DNA from: an uncultured Acidobacteriaceae bacterium
GTDB taxonomy: Bacteria; Acidobacteriota; Terriglobia; Terriglobales; Acidobacteriaceae
Assembly: GCA_963794455.1 (NCBI GenBank)
Contig: CAWCEA010000003.1
Span: forward strand, 2,133,263-2,197,262
DNA: 64,000 nucleotides
Direction of reading: 5' to 3'
In this document: piece after piece, positions 11,801-27,554 of the stretch
Layout: each line of letters begins with the position of its first letter
How positions within the stretch are numbered: the stretch's first letter is position 1
Notes under the pieces: model-generated
The model's database searches: none
What the model saw: the letters and a program-made list of their open reading frames with translations, nothing else
Told to the model about the DNA's origin: nothing
Program-made: the position numbers and the translations under genes

Positions 11801-12736
11801 TCATGGGTGCAGGGCGTTGCCCATCATCAAGGCAAATAACAATGGAAGATAGATGACTGTGGCCTGCAGAACGTGGCGTGCGCGCATTTTCGAAGCGGCG
11901 GTTGCCAGTGGCAGCTTCAGAAACGCCAGTCGAATTCCGAAATACAAAAGCGCAAAGCCGAGCACGATCGCGCCTACCAGGTAAATCCTTCCAGCCATGC
12001 CCATGAAACTGGGAAGCAGGCTGATAGGGATCAATGCAATCGAGTAGATCAAAATCCTGCGAGCGGTCGAGCGTCCATCCTCTTCGACAACCGGCAGCAT
12101 CCGAACTCCGCCGTTCGCGTAGTCCTCGCGATAGAGCCACGCAATGGAGAAGAAGTGCGGGAACTGCCATACGAAGAGAATGGCGAACAACACCAGCGTG
12201 CCCCATTCGAGATGGCCGCGAGCCGCGGTCCAGCCCAGAACTCCGGGCATCGCTCCAGGAAAGGCGCCAACAAATGTGCACACAGGGGAAACGCGCTTCA
12301 ACGGAGTGTAAGCAGCCAAATAAACGACTGCCGTCAGGAACGTCAGCACTCCCGTCAGAGGATTCGTAAAGACTGCCAGATAGATCGATCCGCCAATCGC
12401 CGCCAGCAGCCCTACGGCAGTGGCATGAAACAAGCTCATGCGGCCAGTCGGAAGGGGGCGCAATGCGGTCCGGCGCATGTGGGCATCGACATCGTGCTCC
12501 ATGACTTCGTTCAAAGCCGCGGTGCCGCTCGATGCCAGGCCAATCCCCAGCAGAGAATGAAACAATCCCCAACTGAACCATGAAACGCCGGCCTTATGCG
12601 CTCCGAAGAAATATCCGCACCAAGCGGTCATCACAATCAACGACGTGACCCGGAGCTTCGTCAGTTCGGCGTAATCGCGGAGAAGGGAAGTCGCCCGTGT
12701 GCGGAAGGCAGAAAGAGGCAATGTCATCGTGCTCAT
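11801..12736 (-). CDS. ctaB: protohaem IX farnesyltransferase (haem O synthase), copy 1
   Basis: UbiA-family polytopic protein with YAELTKLRVTSLIVMTAWCGY, NEVMEHDVDAHMRRT and WQFPHFFSIAWLYREDY. Confidence 0.85.
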   Translation of the reverse strand: MSTMTLPLSAFRTRATSLLRDYAELTKLRVTSLIVMTAWCGYFFGAHKAGVSWFSWGLFHSLLGIGLASSGTAALNEVMEHDVDAHMRRTALRPLPTGRMSLFHATAVGLLAAIGGSIYLAVFTNPLTGVLTFLTAVVYLAAYTPLKRVSPVCTFVGAFPGAMPGVLGWTAARGHLEWGTLVLFAILFVWQFPHFFSIAWLYREDYANGGVRMLPVVEEDGRSTARRILIYSIALIPISLLPSFMGMAGRIYLVGAIVLGFALLYFGIRLAFLKLPLATAASKMRARHVLQATVIYLPLLFALMMGNALHP

Positions 12737-12926: not shown

Positions 12927-14321
12927 CTATTGACTTGCTGCAGGCCCCGCCGCGTCAAACGTCTCCGGAGGATCGAAGAAACATTTGTGCCAGAGCGCGG
13001 AATCGGTCAGAGTTCCTGCTTTCCACTGCTGCAGCATTTCGAATGTCGCGGCAATCATGCCGCCGTCGGCGGAATCAAAAATCACTACCACTCCTGCCAA
13101 CTCCTGAGGCTTCTGGGCCAACTCTGTGTAGCCTTTGTCGAAAAGAGATTTTGCATACTCGAGACGCTGCTTCGGTCCAGCATCTTTCGCGTTCTCGTCA
13201 ACTTTTTGCACGGAGATGATCTTCACATTCTTTCCCCGCAGCGGCGCCCAATCTCCCGGAAATTGCGCGGTTTCCTCGCGCTCCACGTGGAACATATCGG
13301 CGGCCGGCAACTGCGCGGCTGCCGTGGGAATATCGGTGTCGGGGATGCCATCGGGCATCTCAACGCTGTCGCGCCAAATCCAACCTCGCGATAATCCAGA
13401 AATACGCACGTGCACCCAGTCCCGGTTGAAATCCAGCATTTCGAACTCATCGTGCATGCTGGCGAGAAACTCCGGTTTCGCTGTCAGGCTTGGAGTTGCA
13501 ACCACCGGCGTCCCGGATTTCTTCACGGCGACAAGATTCTTGGGATGACCCTGGTTCTTGAGGATTTCTTCCAGCGTTTCAACTTCGGTCTGCAGATTGG
13601 TGTCCCGCTTGTCCGCGTTCGGTTGCTCCGCGATTTGCCGGCTGGCGCGCTCCTGTTCCGCCAGGCTCTTGTTCATCGACGAGGAAATCGCCTGATCTAC
13701 ATCGGGGCGACTGGGCGTCGGAGACGACTTTTTTGTTTCACTGTTCGCGGTCGTCGCGGCGGAGGGCTTGGTGGTTGACGGTTTAACAGGTGGGGTCGGA
13801 GGAGCGGACGGTGAACTCTCGCTAGCACCTTTGGCCACCGGCTCTGCCTTAGCTAATCGATCTGCAAGTTGATCCAACAAGTCAGATTCGAGTCGGCCAT
13901 TCGACGGCAGCAACTGGTATCCCGAACGTGATGCGACGGGATCGTTGTACCATGCAGTCACCTTCACCGCGATGTGGACCAGCGATCCACCCGACGCGGT
14001 CGCGCTAACCTCGGCTGTCGCCTGATAGAACCCGCGCTGATACCGGTCAAGGGGATGTTCGGCAGTATCGGCAAATCCATCGAGGACCGGGAGATGGCCA
14101 GACATGCTCCCCGACAAGGTCTTCAATGCTCTTTCGACGGTCGCTTTCGATTGCGGAAAAGCGCGTTCCGAGGGGCCAATCTGTGCAGAAAGGCACGGAA
14201 CGGTGAGAAGAAGAGTAAGAACAACAGATACGAGGGATGCGACGACCCAGAAGCGATGCTCGATTGGCGGTCTCAAAATCCGTATTCTCAAAATCCAGGG
14301 TTCAGGAATCCAGGCTTTCAT
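12927..14321 (-). CDS. secreted protein with Pro/Ser/Thr/Ala-rich linker and C-terminal SH3b-like segment
   Basis: Signal or anchor segment, low-complexity linker (SSPSAPPTPPVKPSTTKPSAATTA), then DWVHVRISGLSRGWIWRDSV. The start overlaps the upstream gene's stop by 4 nt. Confidence 0.55.
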   Translation of the reverse strand: MKAWIPEPWILRIRILRPPIEHRFWVVASLVSVVLTLLLTVPCLSAQIGPSERAFPQSKATVERALKTLSGSMSGHLPVLDGFADTAEHPLDRYQRGFYQATAEVSATASGGSLVHIAVKVTAWYNDPVASRSGYQLLPSNGRLESDLLDQLADRLAKAEPVAKGASESSPSAPPTPPVKPSTTKPSAATTANSETKKSSPTPSRPDVDQAISSSMNKSLAEQERASRQIAEQPNADKRDTNLQTEVETLEEILKNQGHPKNLVAVKKSGTPVVATPSLTAKPEFLASMHDEFEMLDFNRDWVHVRISGLSRGWIWRDSVEMPDGIPDTDIPTAAAQLPAADMFHVEREETAQFPGDWAPLRGKNVKIISVQKVDENAKDAGPKQRLEYAKSLFDKGYTELAQKPQELAGVVVIFDSADGGMIAATFEMLQQWKAGTLTDSALWHKCFFDPPETFDAAGPAASQ

Positions 14322-15362
14322 GGTACCTGCTCAAGCTCGTCGCGCAACATCCATCCGTGCTGTCCCTCGTGTGTCTCCACTCCGAGCCAATAAGGCGTCG
14401 AAATGACAATCAGGACGTCAGTTCCGGCGGTAAGAGATTGCAAAGTGCTGGCGGTGTGAAACGGAGCGGACTTGAGCGGAGCCCCGGGTGCCTTTACCCG
14501 CCGTTCCACCTGCAACCGAAGTTTCTTCACCCGCTCCTCGATCGTTTCTGGGGGTCCATTTTCTGGGCTGCCGATCGCCGGCGCACCGGCACTGCTGGAG
14601 TCATCCGGCGCCGCTTGCACGGCAGGAGGTGGGAGTGCTTGCGCGGTAGACGTCGGCGCCGCTGCCTCTTTTATCGGAGCGGACGAGGACTGGCCGGGCT
14701 CTTGCTTTTTCCTCCCCAGTTCAGCTTTTTCCTTTTTTTCCTTCTCAGCTTCTACAGTCTCAGCTTTCATCGACTCGATGGCATCAAGCCGGTCGTGGAT
14801 ATCTTTGTATTCGGCGCCTTCAACCGAACCATTGGAGAGATGCCTAACGCGACGGAAATCCTCAACAAATACAGCATCAATGTGTAAGACCGTATTTTTC
14901 TCGCCTTGCGGCTGAAGCACGTAGCGGACCGCCAGCGTCCCTACGTCTCCGCTGTCCTTGAAATTTCGTGGGTCCAGCGCGTGCAGCCGTACTTTATAAA
15001 AGACTTTGCCGCCTTCGTTCCATTCCTTGAATGCATGGGTAGAGTTGGCTGAAACGGCTCCTCCAACGTACTCGTCCTCTGTTGTATTCCTTGGTGCCCC
15101 GGATGATGCCGTTTTGAACCACTTCCTCGACGACCTGCTCGACTTCGTTCTCAGGAAGAGGAATACTGACGGTCAGCCCGGCTCCGTAGCTGGCAGTATC
15201 TTTCTCGCGCCCAAAGAGCGGTAGAGCTGACATCGCAAGCATCAGGACTAAGCAGGCGCCAGTGCGACAGCTCTGCGCTAAGCCCACCCGGGAAGCACAC
15301 TTTATCCTGGCGAACCCCACGAACTTGGAACTGCACCTCGGAGGCGGCACCTGTTTTCTCAT
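14318..15362 (-). pseudogene. secreted SH3b-like paralogue, split by a +1 frameshift near 15075..15090
   Basis: ORF 14994..15362 supplies the signal peptide and the N-terminus up to GIIRGTKEYN. The frame of ORF 14318..14920 is open upstream (EDEYVGGAVSANSTHAFKEWNEGGKVFYKVRLHALDPRNFKD...) with no start codon, so the two pieces join. Confidence 0.55.
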
Positions 15363-15496
15363 CTTCGCAAGAAAGACTCTCAGCTCTGGCCTTGGCTGTC
15401 AACTTAGGATTCGTTTCCAAGATACTGAATGGCCAGATAGAACATGAGTTGGACGTGACCTTGTAAAAAAAATGTAAAAAAATTATATTTTCCACC

Positions 15497-15526: not shown

Positions 15527-15719
15527 CGAAAACCGGTAAGGTGGTAGGACCGTTCATGGGAAAAAAGCTGGACACTTTGCCGCCAAAGCAAACATGTGGA
15601 GGGGTTCACGTGGATTGCTTCTCTTAGTCGGTTGCTTTCGTCGTTGTCTCGTCTGCCTTGTCTTTGCATTGCGTGGGAAATGCAAGTTGTTCAAAACAAG
15701 AATTGCTGAGGAGTCCGGC

Positions 15720-17129
15720 ATGCACATTGGGACGCGGTCTAGCCTTTGTGGGAAGCTGCCGTGGATGCAAGTTGTTGCAACCACGGCTCTGGTAGTGATC
15801 TTTTTGATCTTGAGTACCAGTCAGCGTGCGAACGCCCTCCCGGCTTTTGCCCGCAAGTATGGTCTGCGCTGTTCAGCCTGCCACGAATCTTGGCCGATGT
15901 TGAACTACTTCGGTCAGAAGTTTAAAGACAACGGATACCAGCTCATGAATGATCGGGATTCCCCGATCTGGCAGAATCCAGGCTATTGGCCTGTCACCTT
16001 CCGCATTACTCCCTTTTGGAGCCGCGAAAGCACCAACAAGGTCGCTACCGACACCGCTCCCAGTGGTGAACAAAAAATCACGACAACCGGCTTCAATCTC
16101 AGTGGGTTGGACATTTTGACCGGCGGCACCCTTGAGAAGAACATTTCGTTCCTCCTGGTGCCTTCGGCTGACGAAACCGGCGCATTTCACTTCGAGTCGG
16201 TCAATGTTCGCTTTGACAACCTGTTGAACAGTCCCTGGTTGAACGTCAAAGTGGGCAAATTTGAGCTGGACAATATCATTTCGGAGAAGAGGATCCTCAC
16301 CATCTCGGCGAATAGTGGCGGTTTTCAGCTCTACCACTTCATCCCGGTCAATGACGGCAATATCTTCGGCCAGATTGGCGACAACCAACTCGGTGCCGAA
16401 TGGATGGGGCACTCCTTGAACGACCGTACTCGGCTGTCTGCGGCCGTGTTTAGTTCCGTGGATGGCAACGTGGATCTGCCTTACGGCCAGAACTCCTACA
16501 CGGCGTTCTTTGCCGGCAGCCAGGCCTTCGATGCCGGTAAGCTGGGCGTGGAGCGCATCGGCGGCTACGCCATGGTCGGCCAGGCCCCAACCACCTACCT
16601 GACCCAGGGAGGCGTCCCGCTGCCGGGATCCGGCATTGGGAACAAGAGTTTCAGCCGGTATGGTTTCACCGGGCTGTTCTACGTCACCAACAAGCTTGAT
16701 TTCCAGGTGTACACCCAACACGGTGAGGACAGCGCCTGGTTTGGGGCTTGCTACGGAGACATCATCGACGGAGCCACCCCTTGTAGCAACAACAATACCG
16801 GCGGTGCGACCCTCCCGGCGGGAGCGCGCAATCCTACATGGAATGGCGCATTCGTCGAGACGCACTACATTTTCAGCCCTCAGCTTATCTTTATCCAACG
16901 CTCCGAATGGGTCCGCATGTCTCAACAGGCATTGCCGGGGGTCCCTTCGAACCTCGGCGACATCGACAACTATGTGATCGGGTACCGCTATAACCCGTTT
17001 ATGACCAGCCGCGCCGGCTTCGCTTTCCACAACGAGTATGCGTGGCTACGGCAGCGGGGGACGTCGCCGGTAACCGGAACCGACTTGACTTCGAGCAGTC
17101 TGATGCTCGGTTTTGATTTCGACTTCTAG
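15720..17129 (+). CDS. fused monohaem cytochrome c / outer-membrane beta-barrel porin (Cyc2-like)
   Basis: ATG 15720 follows a GAGGAG Shine-Dalgarno. Signal peptide ends in ANA|LP. A single CxxCH (CSACH, 15870..15884) sits 12 residues after the predicted cleavage site. About 400 aa of alternating beta-strand-like sequence follow, ending in the OMP-type terminus GFDFDF. Confidence 0.7.
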   Translation: MHIGTRSSLCGKLPWMQVVATTALVVIFLILSTSQRANALPAFARKYGLRCSACHESWPMLNYFGQKFKDNGYQLMNDRDSPIWQNPGYWPVTFRITPFWSRESTNKVATDTAPSGEQKITTTGFNLSGLDILTGGTLEKNISFLLVPSADETGAFHFESVNVRFDNLLNSPWLNVKVGKFELDNIISEKRILTISANSGGFQLYHFIPVNDGNIFGQIGDNQLGAEWMGHSLNDRTRLSAAVFSSVDGNVDLPYGQNSYTAFFAGSQAFDAGKLGVERIGGYAMVGQAPTTYLTQGGVPLPGSGIGNKSFSRYGFTGLFYVTNKLDFQVYTQHGEDSAWFGACYGDIIDGATPCSNNNTGGATLPAGARNPTWNGAFVETHYIFSPQLIFIQRSEWVRMSQQALPGVPSNLGDIDNYVIGYRYNPFMTSRAGFAFHNEYAWLRQRGTSPVTGTDLTSSSLMLGFDFDF

Positions 17130-17141
17130 AAAGGAACACAC

Positions 17142-18008
17142 ATGCGGACAAGATTGCAGAAGTGGTCGCTTCAGATTGGCGCAGCTGCGGTTTTGGTGTT
17201 CCCGTTGGCTGCCCACGCGCAACTCACAACGGCGCAAATTGAGTCGCGCATCGGCACGGAAAGCCACATCGGCAACGTGACCGGCCATGCCAAGGATGGC
17301 GCGCCCGGTTACCGCCGCTATTGCGTTGGCTGCCACGGCGATTTAGGCGACGGCAACGGCGAGAACGCCCCTTGGGTTGATCCCAAGCCCCGGGATTTCC
17401 AGTTGGGAGTTTTCAAGTGCCGCTCGACTCCGACCGGAACCTTGCCCACGGACGAAGATCTGTTTGATACCATCGGGCGCGGTCTGGATCGGTCGAACAT
17501 GCCGCAATGGAGCACCTTCTCCAATCAAGAGCGTGCTGATTTGGTGGCATGGGTCAAACACTTCTCGCCACGATTTGTGAGTGAGAAGCCTGGAGCGCCG
17601 ATCACGATTCCTCCCGAGCCCGAGGTGACTGCAGAACGAATCAAGGCCGGCAGGGAAGTATTCGCACACGTACAGTGCTGGAAATGCCACGGCGTTGAAG
17701 GCAAAGCCAATGGCCCGTCGGCCGCTACTCTCACTGACGATCTCGGGCGGCCGATTCTGCCCTTTAACTTCACTGAAGGTGCCCGCCCCAAGTGCGGTTC
17801 CACCGATCAGGACCTCTACCGGATCTTCATGACCGGCCTGGACGGCACTCCAATGCCGTCCTTTGCCGACAACATCAAGCCCGACGAGGCTTGGGATCTC
17901 GTTTTCTACCTGAAAACCTTGGAACCTCAGCGGAGCAAAGAGAAAGAGATGGCGAAACAGCTTGGGCTGAAGCCGGTCGATCCGAATGCTCCCGCGGGCC
18001 AACAATAG
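17142..18008 (+). CDS. periplasmic dihaem c-type cytochrome
   Basis: Signal peptide and two CxxCH sites (CVGCH, CWKCH), each followed by a G-rich class-I cytochrome c context. Begins 12 nt after the upstream gene. Confidence 0.85.
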   Translation: MRTRLQKWSLQIGAAAVLVFPLAAHAQLTTAQIESRIGTESHIGNVTGHAKDGAPGYRRYCVGCHGDLGDGNGENAPWVDPKPRDFQLGVFKCRSTPTGTLPTDEDLFDTIGRGLDRSNMPQWSTFSNQERADLVAWVKHFSPRFVSEKPGAPITIPPEPEVTAERIKAGREVFAHVQCWKCHGVEGKANGPSAATLTDDLGRPILPFNFTEGARPKCGSTDQDLYRIFMTGLDGTPMPSFADNIKPDEAWDLVFYLKTLEPQRSKEKEMAKQLGLKPVDPNAPAGQQ

Positions 18009-18083
18009 ATTAACGATGAACAACCATCGCGCGGAGTTGGAGCGGGTCGCCAACTCCGCCGGTCGTACGGAGGATCTTCTCTT

Positions 18084-18830
18084 ATGAATAACCGATTCAA
18101 GCAAGCGTCCATGGCAGTACTATCCGCGCTAGTTCTTGTCAGCTGCGGTGCGTTGCTTCTCGGCCGGCAGGTCAGCGCGGCCGCAGAAGGCAAGATCACG
18201 GGCAGCGTGAAACTCAACGGAACGGCTCCGCACATGAAGGGCATCGACATGTCCAAGGACCCGTATTGCGTAAAGGCCAATCCCACGCCGGTACACCTTC
18301 AAACAGTGGAGGTTGGACAGGGCAACGGCTTGGAGAACGTCGTTCTCTACATCTCCGAAGGTTTGCCCGCCAGCGCCCTCAGTGAAGTTCCAACTACGAT
18401 CCCTGTGTTCGATCAAAAGAACTGCATGTATACCCCGCACGTGCTGGCGATGGACGTCAACCAGAAGTTTAAGGTTGAAACCAGCGATCAGACCGCTCAC
18501 AATATCCATCCGCTCCCCAACCCGATGACGGGCAACATCCCGTGGAATCAGTCGCAGCCGCCGGGCGCTCCTCCCATCGAAAAAAGCTGGAAGGCGACCG
18601 AAATGATCCCCGTCCAGTGCAACATTCATCCCTGGATGCATGGATGGTTTGTCGTAGTGAAAGGACCCTACGCGACCACCGATGCGAACGGCTCCTACAC
18701 CATCAACAACGTGCCACCGGGAAACTACACGGTGACTGCGTGGCAAGAGGATTACGGAACTCAAACTCAGAAGGTGACTGTGGCTGGCGGCCAATCCGCG
18801 ACCGCTGACTTCACCTTCAAGGCGAAATAG
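18084..18830 (+). CDS. type-1 copper cupredoxin-like protein flanked by CarboxypepD_reg-like beta-sandwich segments
   Basis: Signal peptide, upstream His (TAHNIH) and a Cys-x2-His-x2-Met loop (CNIHPWM), the same spacing as the amicyanin CTPHPFM loop. C-terminal GSYTINNVPPGNYTVTAW motif. Confidence 0.65.
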   Translation: MNNRFKQASMAVLSALVLVSCGALLLGRQVSAAAEGKITGSVKLNGTAPHMKGIDMSKDPYCVKANPTPVHLQTVEVGQGNGLENVVLYISEGLPASALSEVPTTIPVFDQKNCMYTPHVLAMDVNQKFKVETSDQTAHNIHPLPNPMTGNIPWNQSQPPGAPPIEKSWKATEMIPVQCNIHPWMHGWFVVVKGPYATTDANGSYTINNVPPGNYTVTAWQEDYGTQTQKVTVAGGQSATADFTFKAK

Positions 18831-18852
18831 AGATTTCTCCTCAACTTAATCG

Positions 18853-18876
18853 GCCGCCACGCAGTCGAGTGGCGGC
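18853..18876 (+). other. intercistronic hairpin between the cupredoxin gene and coxB
   Basis: GCCGCCAC-(8 nt)-GTGGCGGC is a perfect 8-bp stem with no clear U-tract. Possible attenuator or processing site. Confidence 0.3.
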
Positions 18877-18921
18877 TCTCCTAATTCGGGCTGTTCGGAA
18901 CAACCGCAAGCGAGGGCGTCA

Positions 18922-19725
18922 ATGGCGAAGTTCTTTGCAGTCACCATCGTTTTGATTGCGATTGCATCTGCGATTCCTATCGTGATGCATACCTGGCCTA
19001 CGCCGCAGGACATCTCCACTCACGGCGTACTGATTGACGAGCAGACGAACGAGACCATGTTGGAAGCGGGCATTTCGTTCCTGGTCTCGCAATTCATTCT
19101 CGCCTTCTTCATCTGGAAATTCTCCAGTTGGGGCCCCAACAACAAGCTGAAGACATTCCCCGGCGGAGCGAAGGCGATGGTTTGGGCGGCCTTCCTGCTG
19201 GTGGGCACCGAAGTCTTGGCTCTCGGAGTCTTCGGCGTCAAGGCGTGGGCGAACGTTTACCTCACGCCCCCTGCGGCCAACGCCCTCCCCGTACAGGTGC
19301 AGGCTGGACAATTCGCTTTCTACTTCCGCTATCCGGGTCCCGACGGCAAGTTCGGTTTTCTTCATCCGGAGATGATTAACGAAGCTTCCGAGAATTTCTT
19401 CGGAATCGACCAGACCAACGACCCCGCCGCAAAGGATGACATCGTCACTGCGGAGATGGCTATTCCAGTGAACCGCGAGATCCATCTGCTCATGCATTCC
19501 AAAGACGTCGGGCACTCGTTCTTTGTGCCGGAGTTGCGGGTTCAGCAGGACTTCGTCCCCGGTCTGGATTTGTCGGTACACTTCACCGCAACCAAGATCG
19601 GTCGCTACGAGATTGTCTGTACTCAGCTTTGTGGTTTGGGACACTACAACATGAAGGCATACCTCAGTGTGCTGTCCCAGCAAGACTACGATGACTGGCT
19701 CAAGAAGCAGGCTGCTCTGCAGTAG
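18922..19725 (+). CDS. coxB: cytochrome c oxidase subunit II (CuA, no fused cytochrome c domain)
   Basis: Two N-terminal TM helices and a complete CuA site: GHSF ... CTQLCGLGHYNM (C-x3-C-x3-H-x2-M). Confidence 0.9.
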   Translation: MAKFFAVTIVLIAIASAIPIVMHTWPTPQDISTHGVLIDEQTNETMLEAGISFLVSQFILAFFIWKFSSWGPNNKLKTFPGGAKAMVWAAFLLVGTEVLALGVFGVKAWANVYLTPPAANALPVQVQAGQFAFYFRYPGPDGKFGFLHPEMINEASENFFGIDQTNDPAAKDDIVTAEMAIPVNREIHLLMHSKDVGHSFFVPELRVQQDFVPGLDLSVHFTATKIGRYEIVCTQLCGLGHYNMKAYLSVLSQQDYDDWLKKQAALQ

Positions 19726-19779
19726 GTAGCAGATTTCGGTCGTTAATCACTGACGAATCACATTTCTCCGAGGTCGACC

Positions 19780-21564
19780 ATGCACGATACGTCTGCACAC
19801 GCAGTACATCACGCGCCTCCGACGAGCTTTATCGCCAAGCACGTCTTCAGCCTCGACCACAAGGTGATCGGAAAGCAGTATTACGGCATGGCTTTGATCG
19901 CCGCCTTCGTAGGTATGTTCCTCTCCTGGCTGATGCGCATTCACCTCGGTTGGACCAACGCCGCCATCCCCGGGCTGCAGCTGCTTTCCAAGACCGGAGC
20001 GCCCGGCGGCGTGATGACGCCCGAGTACTACCTGCAGCTCATGACCATGCACGCGACCATCATGGTCTTCTTTGTGCTGACCACGGCTCCCTTCGCGGCG
20101 TTCGGCAACTACTTTCTGCCGATCCAGGTCGGCGCGGAAGACATGCCTTTCCCGCACTTCAACATGATGTCGTTCTGGGTCACCTTCAGCGGATTCCTGG
20201 TGCTGATGTCGTCGTTCTTTGTGGCTGACGGGCCCACTCTGGGTGGCTGGACGCAATATGCCCCTCTAAGCGCCGTCGGCGCAGTCTCTGGTCCTGGACA
20301 GGGCACTGGCGTCATCTTGTGGGCGATTGCCATCGGCTTGTTCTGTGTCGGCCAGTTATTCGGCTCGCTGAACTTCATCACCACTACTCTCGACATGCGT
20401 ACCAAAGGCATGAGCATGTGGCGCCTGCCGTTAACCGTATGGGGCTGGTTCATCACCTCGATCATGGGCCTCACGGCTTTCGCAGTCCTGATGCCGGCCT
20501 GTATTCTGCTCATCCTCGACCATGTGGCCGGCACCAGCTTCTTTGTGCCCGCCGGTCTGGTGTTCAATGGCCAGCTCCAGCCGCACTCCGGCGGTTCGAC
20601 GCTTCTCTGGCAGCACCTGTTCTGGTTCTTCGGACATCCGGAGGTCTATATCGCGATCGTGCCCGGAATGGGGATTGTTTCCCACGTTCTGACGACGTCC
20701 ATGCGTAAGCCGTTGTTGAGTCATCGCGTCATGGTTTACGCCATGGGTTCGTTGGCCGTCCTCAGCTATATGGTCTATGGCCACCATATGTTCGTCAGCG
20801 GCATGAATCCGGTATCGTCGCTCGTGTTTTCCTTCCCGACACTCATCATCACCATTCCTTCAACGATTGTCGTTTTGATCTGGGTGGGAAGTTTGTACGG
20901 ATCGAGGCTGCGGATCAACTCCGCGTCGCTCTTTGCCCTGGGATTCATCTCGATGTTCATTAGCGGCGGGATCAGCGGATTCTTTTTGGCTCAGCCCTCC
21001 ATCGACATCATGCTGCACGCCACCTACTTCGTGGTCGGTCACTTCCACCTCGTGATGGCGGTGGCGGCGATGTTCGGCATCTTCGCCGGAACCTACTTCT
21101 GGTTCCCCAAGATGTTCGGCCGGATGATGAGCGAGCCCCTGGGCAAACTTCATTTCTGGTTGAGTTTCGTCGGCGCCTACTGCATCTTCATGCCGTTCCA
21201 CTACCTGGGATTGGCCGGCAACGTCCGCCGCTATCAGGCGTTCACCGATGATTACCTGCAGCCGCTGCTTCCGCTGCACAAGTTCATCACCGTCGCAGCC
21301 ATCGTCACTGGAGCGGCTCAGCTCATCTTCTTGTACAACCTGATCTATAGCCGGTTCTGGGGCAAGCCTGCACCCGACAATCCGTGGGAGGCGACGTCGC
21401 TGGAGTGGAGCACTCCTTCGTCTCCGCCGCCGTTCGATAATTTTGGCGGCACATTCCCCGAAGTCCATCATGACCCATACCAGTACGGCGTCGAAGGCGC
21501 TTCGGCCGACTACGTGATGCAGACTTCGCCAGAGGTGCTCAAGAGCGGGCACGACGAGTCTTAA
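19780..21564 (+). CDS. coxA: cytochrome c oxidase subunit I (A-family haem-copper oxidase)
   Basis: 594 aa with WFFGHPEVYIAIVPGMG, GHHMFVSGM and HFHLVMA signatures. Confidence 0.95.
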   Translation: MHDTSAHAVHHAPPTSFIAKHVFSLDHKVIGKQYYGMALIAAFVGMFLSWLMRIHLGWTNAAIPGLQLLSKTGAPGGVMTPEYYLQLMTMHATIMVFFVLTTAPFAAFGNYFLPIQVGAEDMPFPHFNMMSFWVTFSGFLVLMSSFFVADGPTLGGWTQYAPLSAVGAVSGPGQGTGVILWAIAIGLFCVGQLFGSLNFITTTLDMRTKGMSMWRLPLTVWGWFITSIMGLTAFAVLMPACILLILDHVAGTSFFVPAGLVFNGQLQPHSGGSTLLWQHLFWFFGHPEVYIAIVPGMGIVSHVLTTSMRKPLLSHRVMVYAMGSLAVLSYMVYGHHMFVSGMNPVSSLVFSFPTLIITIPSTIVVLIWVGSLYGSRLRINSASLFALGFISMFISGGISGFFLAQPSIDIMLHATYFVVGHFHLVMAVAAMFGIFAGTYFWFPKMFGRMMSEPLGKLHFWLSFVGAYCIFMPFHYLGLAGNVRRYQAFTDDYLQPLLPLHKFITVAAIVTGAAQLIFLYNLIYSRFWGKPAPDNPWEATSLEWSTPSSPPPFDNFGGTFPEVHHDPYQYGVEGASADYVMQTSPEVLKSGHDES

Positions 21565-21610
21565 GTCGCGACCGGTCAGCCCGAAACGGTAAACGAAAGC
21601 GGTTATCTTT

Positions 21611-22285
21611 ATGGCAACTACAGTTCACGAACCACCAAAATCCGGAATGGGCGCGGAGTTTCCGCTGCGGCCGAGCAATACTGGCGGCGGAAGCACCCTG
21701 ACTCCCTCTGGCGGAGATCTGCGGGCAGTGAAGAAGTATTCGCCGCCTCCCGCTTCCACCGGAATTTGGGTTGTGTTGGCCTCGATCACGATGAGCTTTC
21801 TGGCATTCACCAGCGCTCTCGTGGTGCGCCAAGGCTCGGGCTTGGACTGGCAACACCTGACTCTTCCCCCGATCCTTTATTTCAATACGCTGCTGTTAAT
21901 AGGCAGCAGTGTTGCGCTCGAAGTGGGCCGGCGCCAGGTTCGCGGATTCATGACCGCGAAGACTCTGGTCGCGAATCCGGCTCGCTGGCTGTACGTCGCG
22001 CTGTTTCTCGGCATGCTGTTTGTGGCTGGGCAGTTTACGGCGTGGTTGCAACTGCGCGCGCAGGGACTTTACCTGGCCACCAATCCCAACGCTTCGTTTT
22101 TTTACGTGCTTACCGTAATGCATGCATTGCACGTTTTCGGCGGCCTGGGTGGATTGACTCGAGTGATTCTCAAGCTGAAGCATTCGACCCTGCGCAAGAG
22201 CACGCTGGATGCGACCTCCCATTACTGGCATTTTATGGATGGTCTTTGGATCTTTTTGTTGTGGTTGTTGTGGTCGCGATTGTAA
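21611..22285 (+). CDS. coxC: cytochrome c oxidase subunit III family protein
   Basis: Five-TM subunit III pattern ending in HYWHFMDGLWIFLLWLLW. Confidence 0.85.
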   Translation: MATTVHEPPKSGMGAEFPLRPSNTGGGSTLTPSGGDLRAVKKYSPPPASTGIWVVLASITMSFLAFTSALVVRQGSGLDWQHLTLPPILYFNTLLLIGSSVALEVGRRQVRGFMTAKTLVANPARWLYVALFLGMLFVAGQFTAWLQLRAQGLYLATNPNASFFYVLTVMHALHVFGGLGGLTRVILKLKHSTLRKSTLDATSHYWHFMDGLWIFLLWLLWSRL

Positions 22286-22324
22286 CCCTGAAGCTGTAGC
22301 ACAACGAGCAGTCTAGGAGGCGAC

Positions 22325-22942
22325 TTGAGCTACGCCAGTCTACATGTACACGGACACGCCGCGGATGGAGTTCCGCCCGCGTTTGCCATTCCCGCCAAGA
22401 AAATGGCGATGTGGCTATTCATCATTGCCGATTCGGCTACCTTTGCCGCTTGTCTGGTCGCCTACGGTTTTCTCCGCATCTCCGATCCCCATTGGCCGCG
22501 ACCGTTCCATAGCATTACGAATGTGGCCGTCATGACCCTCATCTTGGTGACCAGCAGCCTCACGATGCTGCTTGGGATCGACGCGGCCAAGGCCGGCAAC
22601 AAAGCCAAAGCTTTCCGATGGACCATGATCACAGCGGTCTTCGGGATTCTCTTCGCCATCCTGCACATTCGTGAGTGGCTTGGCCTGATCGACGAAGGCA
22701 TGCGCATGTTCCAGAATCCCTGGGGCTCGGCTTTGTTCGGTGCATCCTTCTTCAGCATCACGGGTCTGCACCTCTTACACGTTACCTCCGGAGTCATCGC
22801 ACTCATCGTGGTGGGCATTCGCTTTCAGGGCGGCCGCTACAACTCCGATGACCTGGAAATCACCGGCCTTTACTGGCACTTTGTCGACCTCGTGTGGATG
22901 TTCGTTGTGCCGCTGGTCTATCTTTTGAACTTCTCCCGCTGA
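22325..22942 (+). CDS. second cytochrome c oxidase subunit III family protein
   Basis: TTG start 5 nt after an AGGAGG Shine-Dalgarno. ITGLHLLHVTSGV and GLYWHFVDLVWMFVVPLVY. Confidence 0.8.
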   Translation: MSYASLHVHGHAADGVPPAFAIPAKKMAMWLFIIADSATFAACLVAYGFLRISDPHWPRPFHSITNVAVMTLILVTSSLTMLLGIDAAKAGNKAKAFRWTMITAVFGILFAILHIREWLGLIDEGMRMFQNPWGSALFGASFFSITGLHLLHVTSGVIALIVVGIRFQGGRYNSDDLEITGLYWHFVDLVWMFVVPLVYLLNFSR

Positions 22943-22978
22943 TTTTTGCCCGGAGAGACTACGTTAGGAGAATGAATC

Positions 22979-23290
22979 ATGGCAACGGCCGAACAACATC
23001 AAAGCAGCATCGGGAAATACCTCGTCGTCTACGTTTGCATTCTGGTGATTGCCGGACTGCAATTTGTAGTCGCCTACTCGAATGTCGATGGATCCCAGAT
23101 GTTGACCCGCATGCTCATTCTGGCGTGTGCGGAGGCGCTTCTGGCGGTCTTGTTCTTCATGCATCTGTGGGTGGAAAGTCGTGGGCTCCTCTGGTTTGTG
23201 GCAATCTTCACGTTATTCGTGCTCTTCGCCATGCAATACAGTTGGACCGATAGCCTCAGGCTGCTCAACGGCGTACCCTGGGCAAGGTAG
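22979..23290 (+). CDS. coxD: cytochrome c oxidase subunit IV (prokaryotic COX4 family)
   Basis: 103 aa with three TM segments, YLVVYVCILVIAGLQFVVAY and EALLAVLFFMHL. Confidence 0.7.
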   Translation: MATAEQHQSSIGKYLVVYVCILVIAGLQFVVAYSNVDGSQMLTRMLILACAEALLAVLFFMHLWVESRGLLWFVAIFTLFVLFAMQYSWTDSLRLLNGVPWAR

Positions 23291-23334
23291 AATCGGAACC
23301 GGCAATGTTCCGAAGGTAGAGAGGTAGGAGAAAA

Positions 23335-23610
23335 ATGAGAGCTCACAGGTCGCTACGATGGATGGGCCTCTTGTTCGCTGGCCTGGTCTTGTTTTTGGCG
23401 CCGCTGCCGCTGTTCTCGCAGAATTGCGCGCTTTGCTACACGCAGGCCGCTTCTGCCGGCGGTCGGATGATCCAGGCCCTGCGCAGCGGAATTCTCATCC
23501 TTATCATTCCTCCTACCTTCATGTCAGTTGGACTGATCTTTGTCGTCTTTCGCAAAAATAATCAGGTCCGCCACACCGATGACAATGGCGATTCCGGACA
23601 AGACTGGTAA
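23335..23610 (+). CDS. small membrane protein with CxxC motif, oxidase-operon-embedded
   Basis: 91 aa. Signal or TM segment followed by QNCALCY, a second TM, and an acidic tail. The stop is 1 nt before the ctaB start. Confidence 0.5.
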   Translation: MRAHRSLRWMGLLFAGLVLFLAPLPLFSQNCALCYTQAASAGGRMIQALRSGILILIIPPTFMSVGLIFVVFRKNNQVRHTDDNGDSGQDW

Positions 23611-23611
23611 A

Positions 23612-24511
23612 ATGGCCTCTGCACACGTGATGGATACCCGGGTTTCACCGCTGACGCTGAAGTCCAAACTTCGGGACTACTACACCCTTACCAAGCCCGA
23701 AGTGAACCTGCTGATCTTGATGACAACGTCGGCGGGATACTATTTGGCTTCCCGCGGCCCCTTCCACATCGTTGGCCTGGTCAACACTCTCGTAGGAACT
23801 TTGCTGGTCGCCAGCGGCACCGCGACTCTGAATCAATGGTACGAGCGCCGCTGGGATGGCCAGATGTTGCGGACCGCCTCGCGTCCCTTGCCGGCAGGGC
23901 GCTTGAGCGCTCGCGAAGCTTTTTGGTTTGGAATGCTGCTCAGCATCGCCGGGGGCATCTATCTCGCTGTCGCTGTGAACGGACTGGCGGCCCTTCTGGC
24001 GGTTTCGACGTTGCTCTCCTACCTCTTGGTTTACACCCCACTCAAGCGCAAGACGCCGCTCTGCACCATGTTGGGCGCCATCCCCGGCGCCATGCCTACA
24101 CTCATCGGCTGGGCCGGCGCTGCAGGGGCAATCGACCGCAACGCATGGTTCCTCTTCGCCGTCCTCTTTCTGTGGCAGTTCCCGCATTTCCTGGCCATTG
24201 CGCTCATGTATCGCGATGACTACGCCCGCGCGGGTTACCGGATGTTGCCACACTTCGATCTCGACTCGCGCTTCACTCGCGCTGAGATTCTAGGTTTCAC
24301 AGTCGTCCTGATCTTGACGACGCTCTTGCCGCTTGCCGGTCACGTTGGCCCGGTGTATCTCTCGGTGGTGTCTCTGGCGAGCGTGTACCTGCTCTATCAC
24401 GTAGGCAAGCTGATGAAGTCCACCTCGAAGGTCATGGCCAGCCGGGTGGTGCATGCTTCCGTCCTTTATCTACCAGTTGTGCTCGTGATGATGATTGTCT
24501 GCAAGGCCTAA
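23612..24511 (+). CDS. ctaB: protohaem IX farnesyltransferase (haem O synthase), copy 2
   Basis: Start trimmed to ATG 23612 (MASAHVMDTRV...). YYTLTKPEVNLLILMTT, NQWYERRWDGQMLRT and WQFPHFLAIALMYRDDY. Confidence 0.85.
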   Translation: MASAHVMDTRVSPLTLKSKLRDYYTLTKPEVNLLILMTTSAGYYLASRGPFHIVGLVNTLVGTLLVASGTATLNQWYERRWDGQMLRTASRPLPAGRLSAREAFWFGMLLSIAGGIYLAVAVNGLAALLAVSTLLSYLLVYTPLKRKTPLCTMLGAIPGAMPTLIGWAGAAGAIDRNAWFLFAVLFLWQFPHFLAIALMYRDDYARAGYRMLPHFDLDSRFTRAEILGFTVVLILTTLLPLAGHVGPVYLSVVSLASVYLLYHVGKLMKSTSKVMASRVVHASVLYLPVVLVMMIVCKA

Positions 24512-24637
24512 ACGTCCGGAGACCGCGGTTTCGGTTCATGGGCTGGACTCATTGCATGCCGAGTCTAACCCGCACGCGTTCCCTTCGAATCAGAGTCGAC
24601 CATCGACGACCGACTCCGGGGTCAGTTGAGACTCGAA

Positions 24638-25825
24638 ATGCGACAGAAACTTGGATTTGCCCTCTCGATCATGCTGGTCGGCTGCATTATTCTAGGGACC
24701 CGTTATTACGAGGTGGACCTTCCCGTATGGCACTTCCTCGGCGGCGGCAAAGGACTGGACCCCATCTCGTTGCACCTGGCCGGCGAGTTCGTCGAGAGCA
24801 ATCTGGGCACGGCTGAAAACCCAGATGGCTCGTTCACCGTGCGCATGATCGCGCAGCAATATCTCTTCGTGCCGCAATGCGTCGTTGTTCCTGCCGGTGT
24901 GCCCGTGCAATTTCGAATCACTAGCGCGGACGTTTCTCACTCATTCAATATCACCGGCACTCACGACTCCATAAAAGTAGTCCCTGGCACGGTCAGCACG
25001 GCCACCTTTACGTTCTCAACGCCCGGTGACTTCGACGCGCCCTGCAACGAATTTTGCGGCGCCGGACACTTCGCCATGCGCGGCCATCTGAGAGTAGTTC
25101 CGGCGGGCCAATTCGCTGCCTTGCGCGGTGACGAGAGGAGGAGTTGTGATTCTTCGTCCGTTCGCATTCCCTCCAACGTCGAATGGACTCCTGCAACCAT
25201 CCACCAGGCTTCCAGTGGAGATGCGTTTCGCGGATTGTTGATCGCGCGGCGATGCGACCACTGTCACGGAGCTGAAGGCTTCAGTGCTGAGCCCATGATT
25301 CCGAACCTTGCCGGCATGGATCGGCTGTCGGTTTGGAAACAGCTGGAAGATTTTCGCTCGGGTAAGCGCCTGTCGCGAATGATGCAACCGATCGCAGCCC
25401 AACTCCCGGCTCAGGATGTTGTGGATGTTGCAGCTTACTATTCAATGCTCCCGACCGCTCCCGATCCACAGGACAACCGGTCGTTTCCTCAAGCCATGCT
25501 CGATCCGGAGAAAGCGCGGATGGCCGAGGATTTGATCGTCTTCGGAGACGGGCACCGCGGCATCCCGCCCTGTCAGGCGTGTCATGGTCCCGTCGGCTAC
25601 CTGAAGGGCGCGCCTCCTCTCATCCCGCAGAACGGCGATTACCTGCTTACGCAGTTGAAGCATTTCACGGACGGCAGTCGTACCAACGATATCGATGTCG
25701 TAATGCGCAGCATCGCGAAGCAGTTAACCGATGAAGAAAAGGCCGCAGTCTCCGAGTACTACGGCGCAGGCCGTGGACCTGCGGCAGGAACGCCCCACCC
25801 TGCCGGAGTTCCCGTGCAGCACTGA
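24638..25825 (+). CDS. CuA-cupredoxin (oxidase subunit II-like, single TM) fused to a dihaem cytochrome c4-like domain
   Basis: One TM, then SHSF ... CNEFCGAGHFAM (full CuA ligand set, ba3-type spacing). Two CxxCH sites follow (CDHCH, CQACH). No cognate subunit I gene is adjacent. Confidence 0.75.
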   Translation: MRQKLGFALSIMLVGCIILGTRYYEVDLPVWHFLGGGKGLDPISLHLAGEFVESNLGTAENPDGSFTVRMIAQQYLFVPQCVVVPAGVPVQFRITSADVSHSFNITGTHDSIKVVPGTVSTATFTFSTPGDFDAPCNEFCGAGHFAMRGHLRVVPAGQFAALRGDERRSCDSSSVRIPSNVEWTPATIHQASSGDAFRGLLIARRCDHCHGAEGFSAEPMIPNLAGMDRLSVWKQLEDFRSGKRLSRMMQPIAAQLPAQDVVDVAAYYSMLPTAPDPQDNRSFPQAMLDPEKARMAEDLIVFGDGHRGIPPCQACHGPVGYLKGAPPLIPQNGDYLLTQLKHFTDGSRTNDIDVVMRSIAKQLTDEEKAAVSEYYGAGRGPAAGTPHPAGVPVQH

Positions 25826-25928
25826 AGTGGTCGTCCCTCCTGACAACTCCCTGTCTCAACAAACCTCGTCGCATCTCCCTGGTCGCGTGGCATAATCTTC
25901 GGCAACGTCTTCCAGTCAGGTGCCAACC

Positions 25929-26960
25929 ATGCGTCAAGTTCTGATAGCCGTGCTGTGCTTCTCTGCCTTCTTCGTGACCAATCCCTTGCACGATGCGACC
26001 GCCAACTCCAAGCCCCTGCAGATTTATTTCATCGACGTCGAAGGCGGGCAGTCGACCTTGGTCGTGACCCCGTCCGGGCAGTCGTTGCTGATCGACGCAG
26101 GTTGGCCGGGTTACGAGGGCCGCGACGCCGACCGCATTCTGACCGCTGCCCATCAGGCCGGAATCAAGCAGCTCGACTACGTCCTCATCACGCACTACCA
26201 CCGCGACCACGTTGGCGGCGTTCCGCAGTTGGTCGATGGCATGAAGGTCGGAACCTTTGTCGATCACGGTCCGAACCTCGAAGACTCCGAAGTGACCCGC
26301 ACCGACTACGCCGCTTACGAGAAAGCGATCGCCGGCCACGCTCACGTGATCGTTAAACCCGGATGGGGACTTCCGCTCAAAGGCGTCGAAGTCCACGTCA
26401 TAACCGCCGCCGGAGATCACATCAAGAGCCCATTACCCGGGGCCGGAGAAGCGAATCCCTACTGCGGCTCCGAACCGGTCGCGGCTGTCGACGACAGCGA
26501 GAATGCCCGCTCCATCGGTCTTCTCATCACCTACGGCCATTTTCGTTTCCTCGATCTGGGTGATCTCACCAAGAAGAAGGAATTGGAAATCGCCTGCCCC
26601 AACAATCTGCTCGGTACCGTCGACCTTTTCCTCGTAACTCACCACGGGATGGATCTTTCAAACTCGAAATCCCTGGTGTGGGCGGTGCATCCGCGAGTCG
26701 CGATTTTCGACAACGGCGCTCGCAAGGGAGCGAGTCCTGCGGCCTGGCAAATCGTCCACGATTCTCCCGGCATTGAGGATGTCTGGCAGCTTCACTACGC
26801 CGCCCAGTCCGACAAAGACCACAACGTCGCCGACGACCGAATCGCCAACGTGAAAGAGAACTGCGAAGGAAAGTACCTCAAAGTTTCCGCGCAAGCCGAC
26901 GGCACGTTCACAGTAACAAACAGCCGCACGGGCGCCGAAAAAACGTACTCGAAACCATAA
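25929..26960 (+). CDS. secreted MBL-fold metallo-hydrolase
   Basis: Signal peptide, THYHRDHVGG metal-binding motif and a ComEC/lactamase_B-like layout. Confidence 0.8.
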   Translation: MRQVLIAVLCFSAFFVTNPLHDATANSKPLQIYFIDVEGGQSTLVVTPSGQSLLIDAGWPGYEGRDADRILTAAHQAGIKQLDYVLITHYHRDHVGGVPQLVDGMKVGTFVDHGPNLEDSEVTRTDYAAYEKAIAGHAHVIVKPGWGLPLKGVEVHVITAAGDHIKSPLPGAGEANPYCGSEPVAAVDDSENARSIGLLITYGHFRFLDLGDLTKKKELEIACPNNLLGTVDLFLVTHHGMDLSNSKSLVWAVHPRVAIFDNGARKGASPAAWQIVHDSPGIEDVWQLHYAAQSDKDHNVADDRIANVKENCEGKYLKVSAQADGTFTVTNSRTGAEKTYSKP

Positions 26961-26973
26961 TTTGTACGCAAAC

Positions 26974-27019
26974 GTAGCGCCGCCGTCCCGGCGGCTGTCG
27001 GGGAGGCGTCTCGCCCCCG
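26974..27019 (+). repeat. double-hairpin intergenic repeat, family 1, copy 1
   Basis: GTAGC-GCCGCCG-TCC-CGGCGGC-TGTCG-GGGAGGCG-TCT-CGCCCCC-G. It shares its architecture with the copies at 51146, 52900, 59757 and 59931. Confidence 0.7.
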
Positions 27020-27041
27020 CGCCCAAAGCAGTCGGAGCGCT

Positions 27042-27554
27042 ATGAATATGAAACCGCAATCCTCCACCATGATCGTGATTGTGATGGGAGTCGTCGGCGC
27101 CGGAAAGACGACCGTCGGCCGCATGCTGGCCACGCAACTCGGATGGCTGTTCGCCGATGCCGACGATTTTCATCCGCAGCCGAACGTTGAGAAAATTAGC
27201 CACGGCATCCCCCTCACTGACGACGATCGACGACCCTGGCTGGAACATCTCCGCGCCGCCATCGACAATTGGATAGCCCAAAGAAGCAGCGTCGTCCTCG
27301 CATGCTCGGCGTTGAAACGCAGCTATCGGCAGGAACTCGAAGCTGGCCCCGAGGTCCGCTTTGTATACCTGAAGGGAAGTGCAAACCTGATCGCAGAGCG
27401 CCTGCGCGAGCGTCACGGACACTTCGCTGGCGAACAAATCCTCGCCAGCCAATTCGCAGATCTGGAAGAACCGAAACACGCGGTTGTTGTAAGCATCTCC
27501 CAAACTCCAGAAGAAATTGCGGCCGAGATTCGGCAAAAGCTCGGATTAGCGTAG
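27042..27554 (+). CDS. gntK: gluconokinase
   Basis: P-loop GVVGAGKTTVG, then ADADDFHP and PLTDDDRRPWL, typical of GntK/IdnK. Confidence 0.85.
   Translation: MNMKPQSSTMIVIVMGVVGAGKTTVGRMLATQLGWLFADADDFHPQPNVEKISHGIPLTDDDRRPWLEHLRAAIDNWIAQRSSVVLACSALKRSYRQELEAGPEVRFVYLKGSANLIAERLRERHGHFAGEQILASQFADLEEPKHAVVVSISQTPEEIAAEIRQKLGLA

Follow-up and report, generated by a model that had tools for sequence, protein, structure and literature searches.

A probable Cyc2-family cytochrome-porin encoded with an aa3-type oxidase in an uncultured acidobacterium is a candidate entry point for extracellular electrons

Introduction

Can a bacterium from a group regarded as organotrophic draw electrons from outside the cell and pass them to oxygen? 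This question is raised by a 64,000-nucleotide (nt) stretch of DNA, hereafter the window, from an uncultured Acidobacteriaceae bacterium (GenBank assembly GCA_963794455.1, contig CAWCEA010000003.1, positions 2,133,263 to 2,197,262 of the forward strand). A gene at positions 15720 to 17129 of the window encodes what is very probably a cytochrome-porin of the Cyc2 family, and it stands at the head of a putative operon for an aa3-type cytochrome c oxidase. An initial annotation, made from the sequence alone, had interpreted the product as a single-haem cytochrome c fused to an outer-membrane beta-barrel. The analysis reported here supports that interpretation and adds the operon context, comprising a cytochrome c, a blue copper protein, and the aa3 oxidase. 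Our overall explanation, to which we assign a probability of roughly 0.6, is that the porin is the point at which extracellular electrons enter on their way to the aa3 oxidase.

Cyc2 is the main genetic marker for inferring microbial iron oxidation from genomes, and three members of the family have been shown to oxidise Fe(II). Keffer et al. (2021) describe Cyc2 as a signal peptide, one CxxCH, and a 16-strand porin; upstream of the haem site lies AxPxFAR[Q/K][T/Y], which is unique to Cyc2, and PxL follows four residues downstream. Surveys based on FeGenie have already listed metagenome-assembled genomes (MAGs) of Acidobacteriota as predicted iron oxidisers via Cyc2 homologues. In a 2018 study of Sulfotelmatobacter-type peat MAGs, iron metabolism genes were stated to be absent, and our literature search found no publications naming both cyc2 and Terriglobia. 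The Cyc2 family is already known, and what the present locus adds is modest: a conserved blue copper partner and a link to an oxidase operon, both of which are new leads.

Results

The product of 15720-17129 carries the Cyc2 signature

The gene lies on the plus strand and encodes 469 amino acids (aa) plus a stop codon. A Shine-Dalgarno sequence, GAGGAG (15708-15713, plus strand), was read from the DNA 6 nt ahead of the ATG at 15720; moreover, the N-termini of 25 homologues align at this position, and gene calls on four public contigs give a 469-aa gene with an identical product. Three lines of evidence thus support the start codon at 15720. A longer open reading frame (ORF) from 15594 and an antisense ORF (15873-17030) were without comparable support.

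The N-terminus reads MHIGTRSSLCGKLPWMQVVATTALVVIFLILSTSQRANA, followed by the predicted cut and LPAFARKY. With n-, h-, and c-regions that can be read by eye, residues 1 to 39 (15720-15836, plus strand) constitute a predicted Sec-type leader with an A-x-A site after residue 39, and homologues have signal peptides that align with the h-region. These data agree with the earlier proposal of a leader ending in ANA before LP. Likewise, the haem c attachment motif CSACH (residues 51 to 55, 15870-15884, plus strand) is the sole CxxCH in the protein, with C51 located 12 residues past the cleavage site, as had been noted. The complete signature (15834-15902, plus strand) comprises A39-L-P-A-F-A-R-K-Y47, GLR, C51-S-A-C-H55, ESW, and P59-M-L61. 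Within it, ANALPAFARKYGLRCSACHESWPML is an exact fit to the Cyc2-defining motif of Keffer et al. (2021), FAR lies five residues ahead of C51, and PxL (P59-M-L61) lies four residues after CxxCH. At 469 aa, the protein also falls within the Cyc2 length range of at least 365 aa. The initial annotation had likened the protein to Cyc2 on account of its size, and the presence of the defining motif strengthens that comparison.

We examined conservation in an alignment of 34 sequences, which range from 88% down to 26% identity and come from a profile search with no motif requirement. P41, F43, C51, C54, H55, P59, G65, D70, and G72 are invariant, and A44, R45, L61, N62, and Y73 are nearly so. The CxxCH, whose possible lack of conservation had been raised in the initial annotation, is instead present in all 34 sequences.

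The cyc2-like protein has no match in Pfam or NCBIfam, as would be the case if it were an ordinary porin with an incidental CxxCH or no real gene at all. The conservation data argue otherwise. The CxxCH and its flanking motif are invariant down to 26% identity, and more than 5,450 homologous clusters (90% identity) were found at an E value of at most 1e-3 among 8,000 candidates scored. Furthermore, a single copy of the back-translated motif P-x-F-A-R-x5-C-x2-C-H-x3-P-x-L is present in the window, whereas 100 shuffles contained none. The window also matches a metagenome contig in ENA (ERZ25039458:contig_108724, locus L001) with 99.55% identity over 21.4 kb; between the two strains, six operon genes show 10 nucleotide differences, all of them synonymous and none in the cyc2-like gene. 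Judged by these sequence comparisons, the reading as an ordinary porin or a non-gene is effectively refuted.

A 16-strand barrel is predicted downstream of the haem domain

When AlphaFold2 was run with 26 close homologues (77-88% identity), the predicted local distance difference test score (pLDDT) was 33, and a diverse alignment was needed for a confident model (m72256a8c1b22; pLDDT 81.4, predicted template modelling score 0.79). In this model, short helices at residues 41 to 70 are followed by 16 DSSP strands that form a predicted beta-barrel from residue 92 to residue 468 (15993-17123, plus strand). The protein ends in LMLGFDFDF, of which GFDFDF (17109-17126, plus strand) fits the C-terminal beta-signal G-x-x-aromatic-x-aromatic; the C-termini of homologues read DF[AD][FYL]. 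A barrel behind the haem domain, for which the initial annotation had suggested an AlphaFold check, is therefore what the prediction returned, and the terminal aromatic residue characteristic of outer-membrane proteins was confirmed.

A Foldseek search of the PDB placed OprP (2o4v) first, with an E value of 2e-13, and OprO (4rjw and 4rjx) third and fourth; BpsOmp38 and PorB were matched as well. All top matches are outer-membrane porins. The best structural matches to the barrel, OprP, OprO, and Neisseria PorB, have E values from 2e-13 to 4e-11 and template modelling scores from 0.47 to 0.68. Unlike the window protein, however, they have no haem domain, and their sequence identity to it is 10-13%; sequence and profile searches of the PDB with the cyc2-like protein gave no sequence-level match. 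OprO and OprP were the templates for Cyc2 of Mariprofundus PV-1 (Keffer et al., 2021), and PorB was the best match reported for Cyt572 in a sequence similarity network (SSN) study.

Many charged residues in the predicted barrel are near-invariant, namely, E182, D184, R191, E227, H231, R238, R394, R423, and E439, with H231 conserved only in the branch of the window and its nearer relatives. Because porin domains are characteristically low in amino-acid conservation (Keffer et al., 2021), the near-invariance of so many charged residues suggests that the barrel may do more than form a hole.

The protein belongs to a large acidobacterial branch

An exhaustive profile search matched 2,697 clusters at 50% identity. 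Among the more than 5,450 clusters at 90% identity, all named members are 'hypothetical proteins' from MAGs of Terriglobales, Candidatus Sulfotelmatobacter, or Candidatus Solibacter, and the MAGs of the relatives originate from peat, palsa, and acid soil. A back-translated motif scan of GTDB species genomes yielded at least 120 loci, and the taxon counts that follow describe this sample of matches listed rather than a census. All 120 matches are N-termini of the same kind, and the ORFs that are complete in their sequence block are nearly all about 340 to 590 aa long with an aromatic or hydrophobic end. Motif carriers include MAGs of Mariprofundus, Zetaproteobacteria, and Acidithiobacillus, Candidatus Nitrospira defluvii, and many Acidobacteriota, Gemmatimonadota, Ignavibacteria, and Proteobacteria. 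The 'FARQT' form accounts for 32 matches, mostly from Proteobacteria including Acidithiobacillus, and the 'FARKY' form with its variants accounts for 88, the window included.

ORFs from ten of these loci align with the window protein over the full length at 46% identity or more; an eleventh (L103) is 79% identical, its ORF being cut by the end of the block. Eight of the eleven carry the label Acidobacteriaceae, Terriglobales, Terriglobia, Sulfotelmatobacter, Solibacter, or Acidobacteriota; the remaining three are marked as Gemmatimonadales (two) and Chloroflexi (one). With many other FARKY-type proteins, about 130 to 250 residues align, and with FARQT-type proteins it is mostly the haem domain alone. 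In a blastp search of the cyc2-like ORFs, which form a small database, E values were 4e-10 for a Mariprofundus MAG, 3e-9 for a Zetaproteobacteria MAG, and 6e-7 for an Acidithiobacillus MAG. A comparison by hhalign with the proteobacterial group gave a probability of 99% and an E value of 6e-18 over columns 24 to 167, which cover the haem domain and first strands. Profile-profile comparisons with four other groups gave 98.6-99.9% over 331 to 389 columns, near full length. Within the Cyc2 family, identity across clusters is normally 17-23%, and in the SSN study homologues from Acidobacteria and Nitrospira adjoin Leptospirillum Cyt572. Taken together, we consider it very probable that the cyc2-like protein is a Cyc2-family cytochrome-porin.

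The cyc2-like gene leads a putative oxidase operon

On the same (plus) strand, the cyc2-like gene is followed by genes for a dihaem cytochrome c, a cupredoxin, CoxB, CoxA, two COX3-like proteins, CoxD, a short ORF, CtaB, and a CuA-dihaem fusion. The gaps between the first genes are 12, 75, 91, and 54 nt, and no convincing terminator was found between the operon genes.

The first neighbour (17142-18008, plus strand), which begins 12 nt past the cyc2-like stop codon, encodes a predicted periplasmic dihaem cytochrome c with the haem motifs CVGCH and CWKCH and matches to Pfam Cytochrome_CBB3 and Cytochrom_C. Its match in the PDB is 6h5l_B, a 'conserved hypothetical cytochrome protein' of Kuenenia (E 1e-56), which we take to be a partner subunit of an anammox multihaem reductase complex. 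This family of dihaem carriers would thus be used in very different electron-transfer settings. A 'Cyc1-like' label for the gene was considered and rejected, since the solved structure to which it is related, 6h5l_B, is not that of a c4 cytochrome. Its C-terminal haem domain scored 49 bits against Leptospirillum cytochrome 579 (NCBIfam NF033864), compared to a cut-off of 280, which amounts to a distant likeness.

The second neighbour (18084-18830, plus strand, with an alternative start at 18111) encodes 248 aa, consisting of a cupredoxin domain and a C-terminal CarboxypepD_reg domain; Pfam detects CarboxypepD_reg alone. A profile of the central cupredoxin region, built from 21 syntenic homologues, matched amicyanin (E 2e-10) and the cupredoxin domain of nitrite reductase (E 9e-13), and Pfam Copper-bind matched 12 of the 21 homologues. 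The type-1 copper ligands H139, C179, H182, and M185 are invariant in the homologues, and the loop CNIHPWM resembles the CTPHPFM of amicyanin. On the strength of these matches, ligands, and loop, the predicted product is a type-1 blue copper protein.

The oxidase genes come next on the plus strand. coxB (18922-19725) encodes subunit II with the CuA motif CTQLCGLGHYNM and without a fused cytochrome c, and coxA (19780-21564) encodes haem-copper oxidase subunit I (Pfam COX1, E 8e-125). Two tandem COX3-like genes follow (21611 or 21647 to 22285, and 22325-22942), the first of which barely passes the Pfam cut-off (24.5 versus 23.8 bits), and then coxD (COX4_pro; 22979-23290) and a ctaB-like gene for a haem O synthase of the UbiA family (23540-24511). 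Because CoxB has CuA without a fused cytochrome c, the oxidase would need soluble donors such as the dihaem cytochrome c and the blue copper protein. After ctaB, with no subunit I adjoining, a gene at 24626-25825 (plus strand) encodes a membrane-anchored CuA domain with a single transmembrane segment (CNEFCGAGHFAM) fused to a c4-like dihaem domain (CDHCH and CQACH). In Proteobacteria, an Acidithiobacillus MAG (L027) among them, the c4 gene that directly follows FARQT-type cyc2, in the cyc1 position, has a product about 30% identical to the c4 half of this fusion.

The gene arrangement is conserved in relatives

Among the matches listed, genes for the cyc2-like protein, dihaem cytochrome c, cupredoxin, and CoxB (and CoxA) were found in all eight close GTDB loci whose 8-kb block reaches far enough. 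In one Solibacter locus the first three genes are present, with coxB absent from the next 2 kb. A 48%-identical relative (L125), whose cluster includes a Candidatus Acidoferrales MAG, matches this layout down to the divergent pair of genes upstream, and the order from the cyc2-like gene to cox is kept in relatives down to 46% identity. Nitrospira loci retain the genes for the cyc2-like protein, dihaem cytochrome c, and cupredoxin, and in a relative of 26% identity genes for the cupredoxin, the cyc2-like protein, and the dihaem cytochrome c occur without any oxidase. Among the matches listed, a cupredoxin homologue lies in the block of 22 of 55 cyc2 loci of other than the FARQT type with enough downstream sequence, and a c4 cytochrome is encoded downstream in 10 of 32 FARQT-type loci.

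Cupredoxin homologues adjoin FARKY-type cyc2 genes in Acidobacteriota, Nitrospirota, Myxococcota, and Gemmatimonadota. In two Gemmatimonadales MAGs (L011 and L098) and a Chloroflexi MAG (L019), the run from cyc2 to coxB is present at 46-49% identity, with coxA as well in L011 and L098. These occurrences in MAGs of other phyla point to either operon transfer or mis-binning.

The upstream region and the rest of the window

The 480-nt divergent intergenic region ahead of the operon is otherwise about 55% GC and includes an AT-rich stretch, cttgtaaaaaaaatgtaaaaaaattatatttt (15455-15495), that contains the sole promoter-like match upstream of the operon. This match, TTGTAA-17-TATATT (15461-15489, plus strand), fits the consensus; the number of such sites in the region is no higher than in shuffles, and we regard it as a weak candidate. 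Two divergent genes on the minus strand (12927-14321 and 14318-15241), to which no function was assigned, have weak SH3_3 matches only. The larger of them has a predicted N-terminal hydrophobic leader, and its 440-aa counterpart in L125 has a recorded SH3_3 match. One or both genes have homologues next to the cyc2-cox operon in L125 and in nine acidobacterial loci of GTDB. At about position 15076, within the gene at 14318-15241, the window carries one extra C relative to L001, which frameshifts a conserved 307-aa gene into ORFs at 14318-14920 and 14994-15362; the cause is either decay of the gene to a pseudogene or a mistake in the assembly.

The oxidase operon has a CtaB-like gene of the UbiA family on either side, one at 11801-12736 on the minus strand and the other the ctaB gene at 23540-24511. 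Counterparts of the upstream copy occupy the same position in related loci and have 42-46% identity to the downstream ctaB. The idea of a horizontally acquired island was rejected, the GC content of the locus being 0.54-0.58 compared to 0.54-0.62 for the window. Further downstream (28945-33877, plus strand) lie genes for an 802-aa fusion of HAD and fatty-acyl reductase ('male sterility') domains, a reductase-like protein, and a polysaccharide pyruvyl transferase-like protein, followed by two AMP-binding enzymes and an enoyl-CoA hydratase. The cluster at 28945-33877 may specify a pathway to a lipid or alcohol product.

Discussion

From the family signature, the predicted fold, the conservation of the haem motif, the identities of the neighbours, and the conserved gene order, we infer the following path. 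A monohaem cytochrome c domain of about 50 residues, with covalently bound haem, would sit at the N-terminus of a 16-strand barrel in the outer membrane. A dissolved reductant outside the cell, most likely Fe2+, would reach the haem at the barrel or by way of it and hand over electrons one at a time. Electrons would then flow inward to the periplasmic dihaem cytochrome c, the type-1 blue copper protein, or both, as physical partners, and from there to CuA of the aa3-type cytochrome c oxidase encoded in the same putative operon, which would reduce O2. We lean slightly towards the view that the cyc2-like protein feeds extracellular electrons to the oxidase in its own operon. Fe(II) as the physiological donor is a serious candidate that we place just short of even odds.

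Several observations weigh against this explanation. Likeness to the Cyc2 proteins of established iron oxidisers does not extend past the haem domain and first strands, and Keffer et al. (2021) consider function least certain for divergent homologues far from characterised proteins. The three members shown to oxidise Fe(II) all lie outside the acidobacterial branch, and Cyc2 homologues occur in many organisms not known as iron oxidisers, such as nitrite-oxidising Nitrospira. The AlphaFold2 model includes no haem and was built on just 34 sequences, and a search for a sixth haem ligand conserved across subfamilies found none. Two other relatives stand alone, without neighbours of the kind described here. 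In addition, the dihaem cytochrome c and the cupredoxin could be ordinary carriers from a quinol:cytochrome c reductase to the aa3 oxidase, to which the porin would be unrelated. Finally, the rest of the window is heterotroph-like, with genes for LacI, GH31, FGGY kinase, GalT, PFK, CstA, and glycogen synthase, but none for carbon fixation among the window genes scanned.

These points bear on three rival explanations. The same architecture could carry electrons inward from another donor, namely, Mn(II), reduced humic quinones, or Cu(I), or it could detoxify Fe2+ with little energy gain. The heterotroph-like host and the spread of the family in organisms that do not oxidise iron would suit such a role; Cyc2 has been proposed as a candidate Mn(II) oxidase in Candidatus Manganitrophaceae, and Keffer et al. 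(2021) call other functions possible. However, Fe(II) oxidation is the sole activity shown biochemically for the family, and the relatives come from peat, palsa, and acid soil, where dissolved Fe(II) would be expected, and we consider a donor or role of this kind unlikely. An outward conduit, through which respiration under anoxia would discharge electrons onto Fe(III) or humics outside the cell, is less probable still. One distant relative does have the set of cyc2-like protein, dihaem cytochrome c, and cupredoxin without an oxidase, as an outward conduit might, but in the window the operon of the gene also encodes an aa3 oxidase, which reduces O2, and a blue copper protein, a class whose members typically serve as carriers at high potential. 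Moreover, the cyc2-like protein has a single haem motif, whereas known outward conduits are multihaem chains in 26-strand porins.

The same set without an oxidase speaks against the last rival, which we regard as very improbable: that the porin is an accessory of oxidase biogenesis or uptake, for example, a possibly reductive outer-membrane channel supplying copper for CuA, CuB, and the cupredoxin. Sharing an operon with three copper proteins would be expected of such a channel. On the other hand, a redox cofactor defines the family, the members that have been tested oxidise Fe(II), and no similarity to known copper importers was detected in the Pfam, NCBIfam, and PDB searches. Altogether, entry of extracellular electrons destined for the aa3 oxidase remains our preferred explanation.

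Tentatively, and at well under even odds, we further propose that a FARKY-type Cyc2, a dihaem cytochrome c, and a blue copper protein fused to CarboxypepD_reg form a conserved, undescribed module for extracellular electron uptake across Acidobacteriota, Nitrospirota, Gemmatimonadota, and Myxococcota, which in Terriglobia would be wired into an aa3 operon. If so, some 'heterotrophs' that rank among the most abundant bacteria of soil and peat would, facultatively, oxidise Fe(II), or else Mn(II) or reduced humics, under aerobic conditions. The acidobacterial branch is very large and comes from dominant acid-soil and peat bacteria regarded as organotrophs, and its linkage to a cytochrome c, a blue copper protein, and an aa3 oxidase offers a concrete, testable electron path. 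An active path would mean many more Fe(II)-oxidising agents at oxic-anoxic interfaces in soil than are presently assumed, with a bearing on iron-bound carbon and phosphorus. If the path is inactive, FeGenie-type cyc2 calls would predict iron oxidation too often in Acidobacteriota.

Among known systems, the nearest in organisation is the rus operon of Acidithiobacillus, with the order cyc2-cyc1-cup-coxBACD-rus. The rus operon and the window share the same order of gene types: an outer-membrane cytochrome-porin, a dihaem cytochrome c, a cupredoxin, and coxBACD. However, cyc1 of the rus operon encodes a cytochrome c4, whereas the dihaem cytochrome c of the window belongs to a different, 6h5l_B-like family, and the c4-like domain of the window sits further downstream, fused to a CuA domain. 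Furthermore, cup of the rus operon encodes AcoP; in the window this place is taken by the amicyanin-like cupredoxin with its CarboxypepD_reg fusion, and among the ORFs scanned from 15720 to 27554 there is no rusticyanin and no cupredoxin gene beyond that at 18084-18830 and the CuA domains. Because the cytochrome families differ, the cupredoxin families appear to differ, and no rusticyanin gene was seen among these ORFs, we treat the resemblance as an analogy of organisation and claim no orthology. In Leptospirillum, the partner of Cyt572 is cytochrome 579, whereas the dihaem cytochrome c of the window falls short of the NF033864 cut-off.

Cyc2 of Mariprofundus ferrooxydans PV-1, Cyc2 of Acidithiobacillus ferrooxidans, Leptospirillum Cyt572, and the window protein all start with a signal peptide and have a single CxxCH some 12 residues from the mature N-terminus. 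Also shared with Cyc2 systems are AxPxFAR[Q/K][T/Y] with PxL, a predicted 16-strand barrel that is OprP-like or PorB-like, and a length above 365 aa. Unlike the FARQT-type Cyc2 proteins, the window protein carries FARKY and belongs to a large acidobacterial branch. MtoAB, PioAB, and MtrCAB are, like the window protein, outer-membrane conduit designs of a barrel with c-type haem; in those systems a separate decahaem protein is held in a 26-strand barrel, whereas the window protein combines one fused haem motif with 16 predicted strands.

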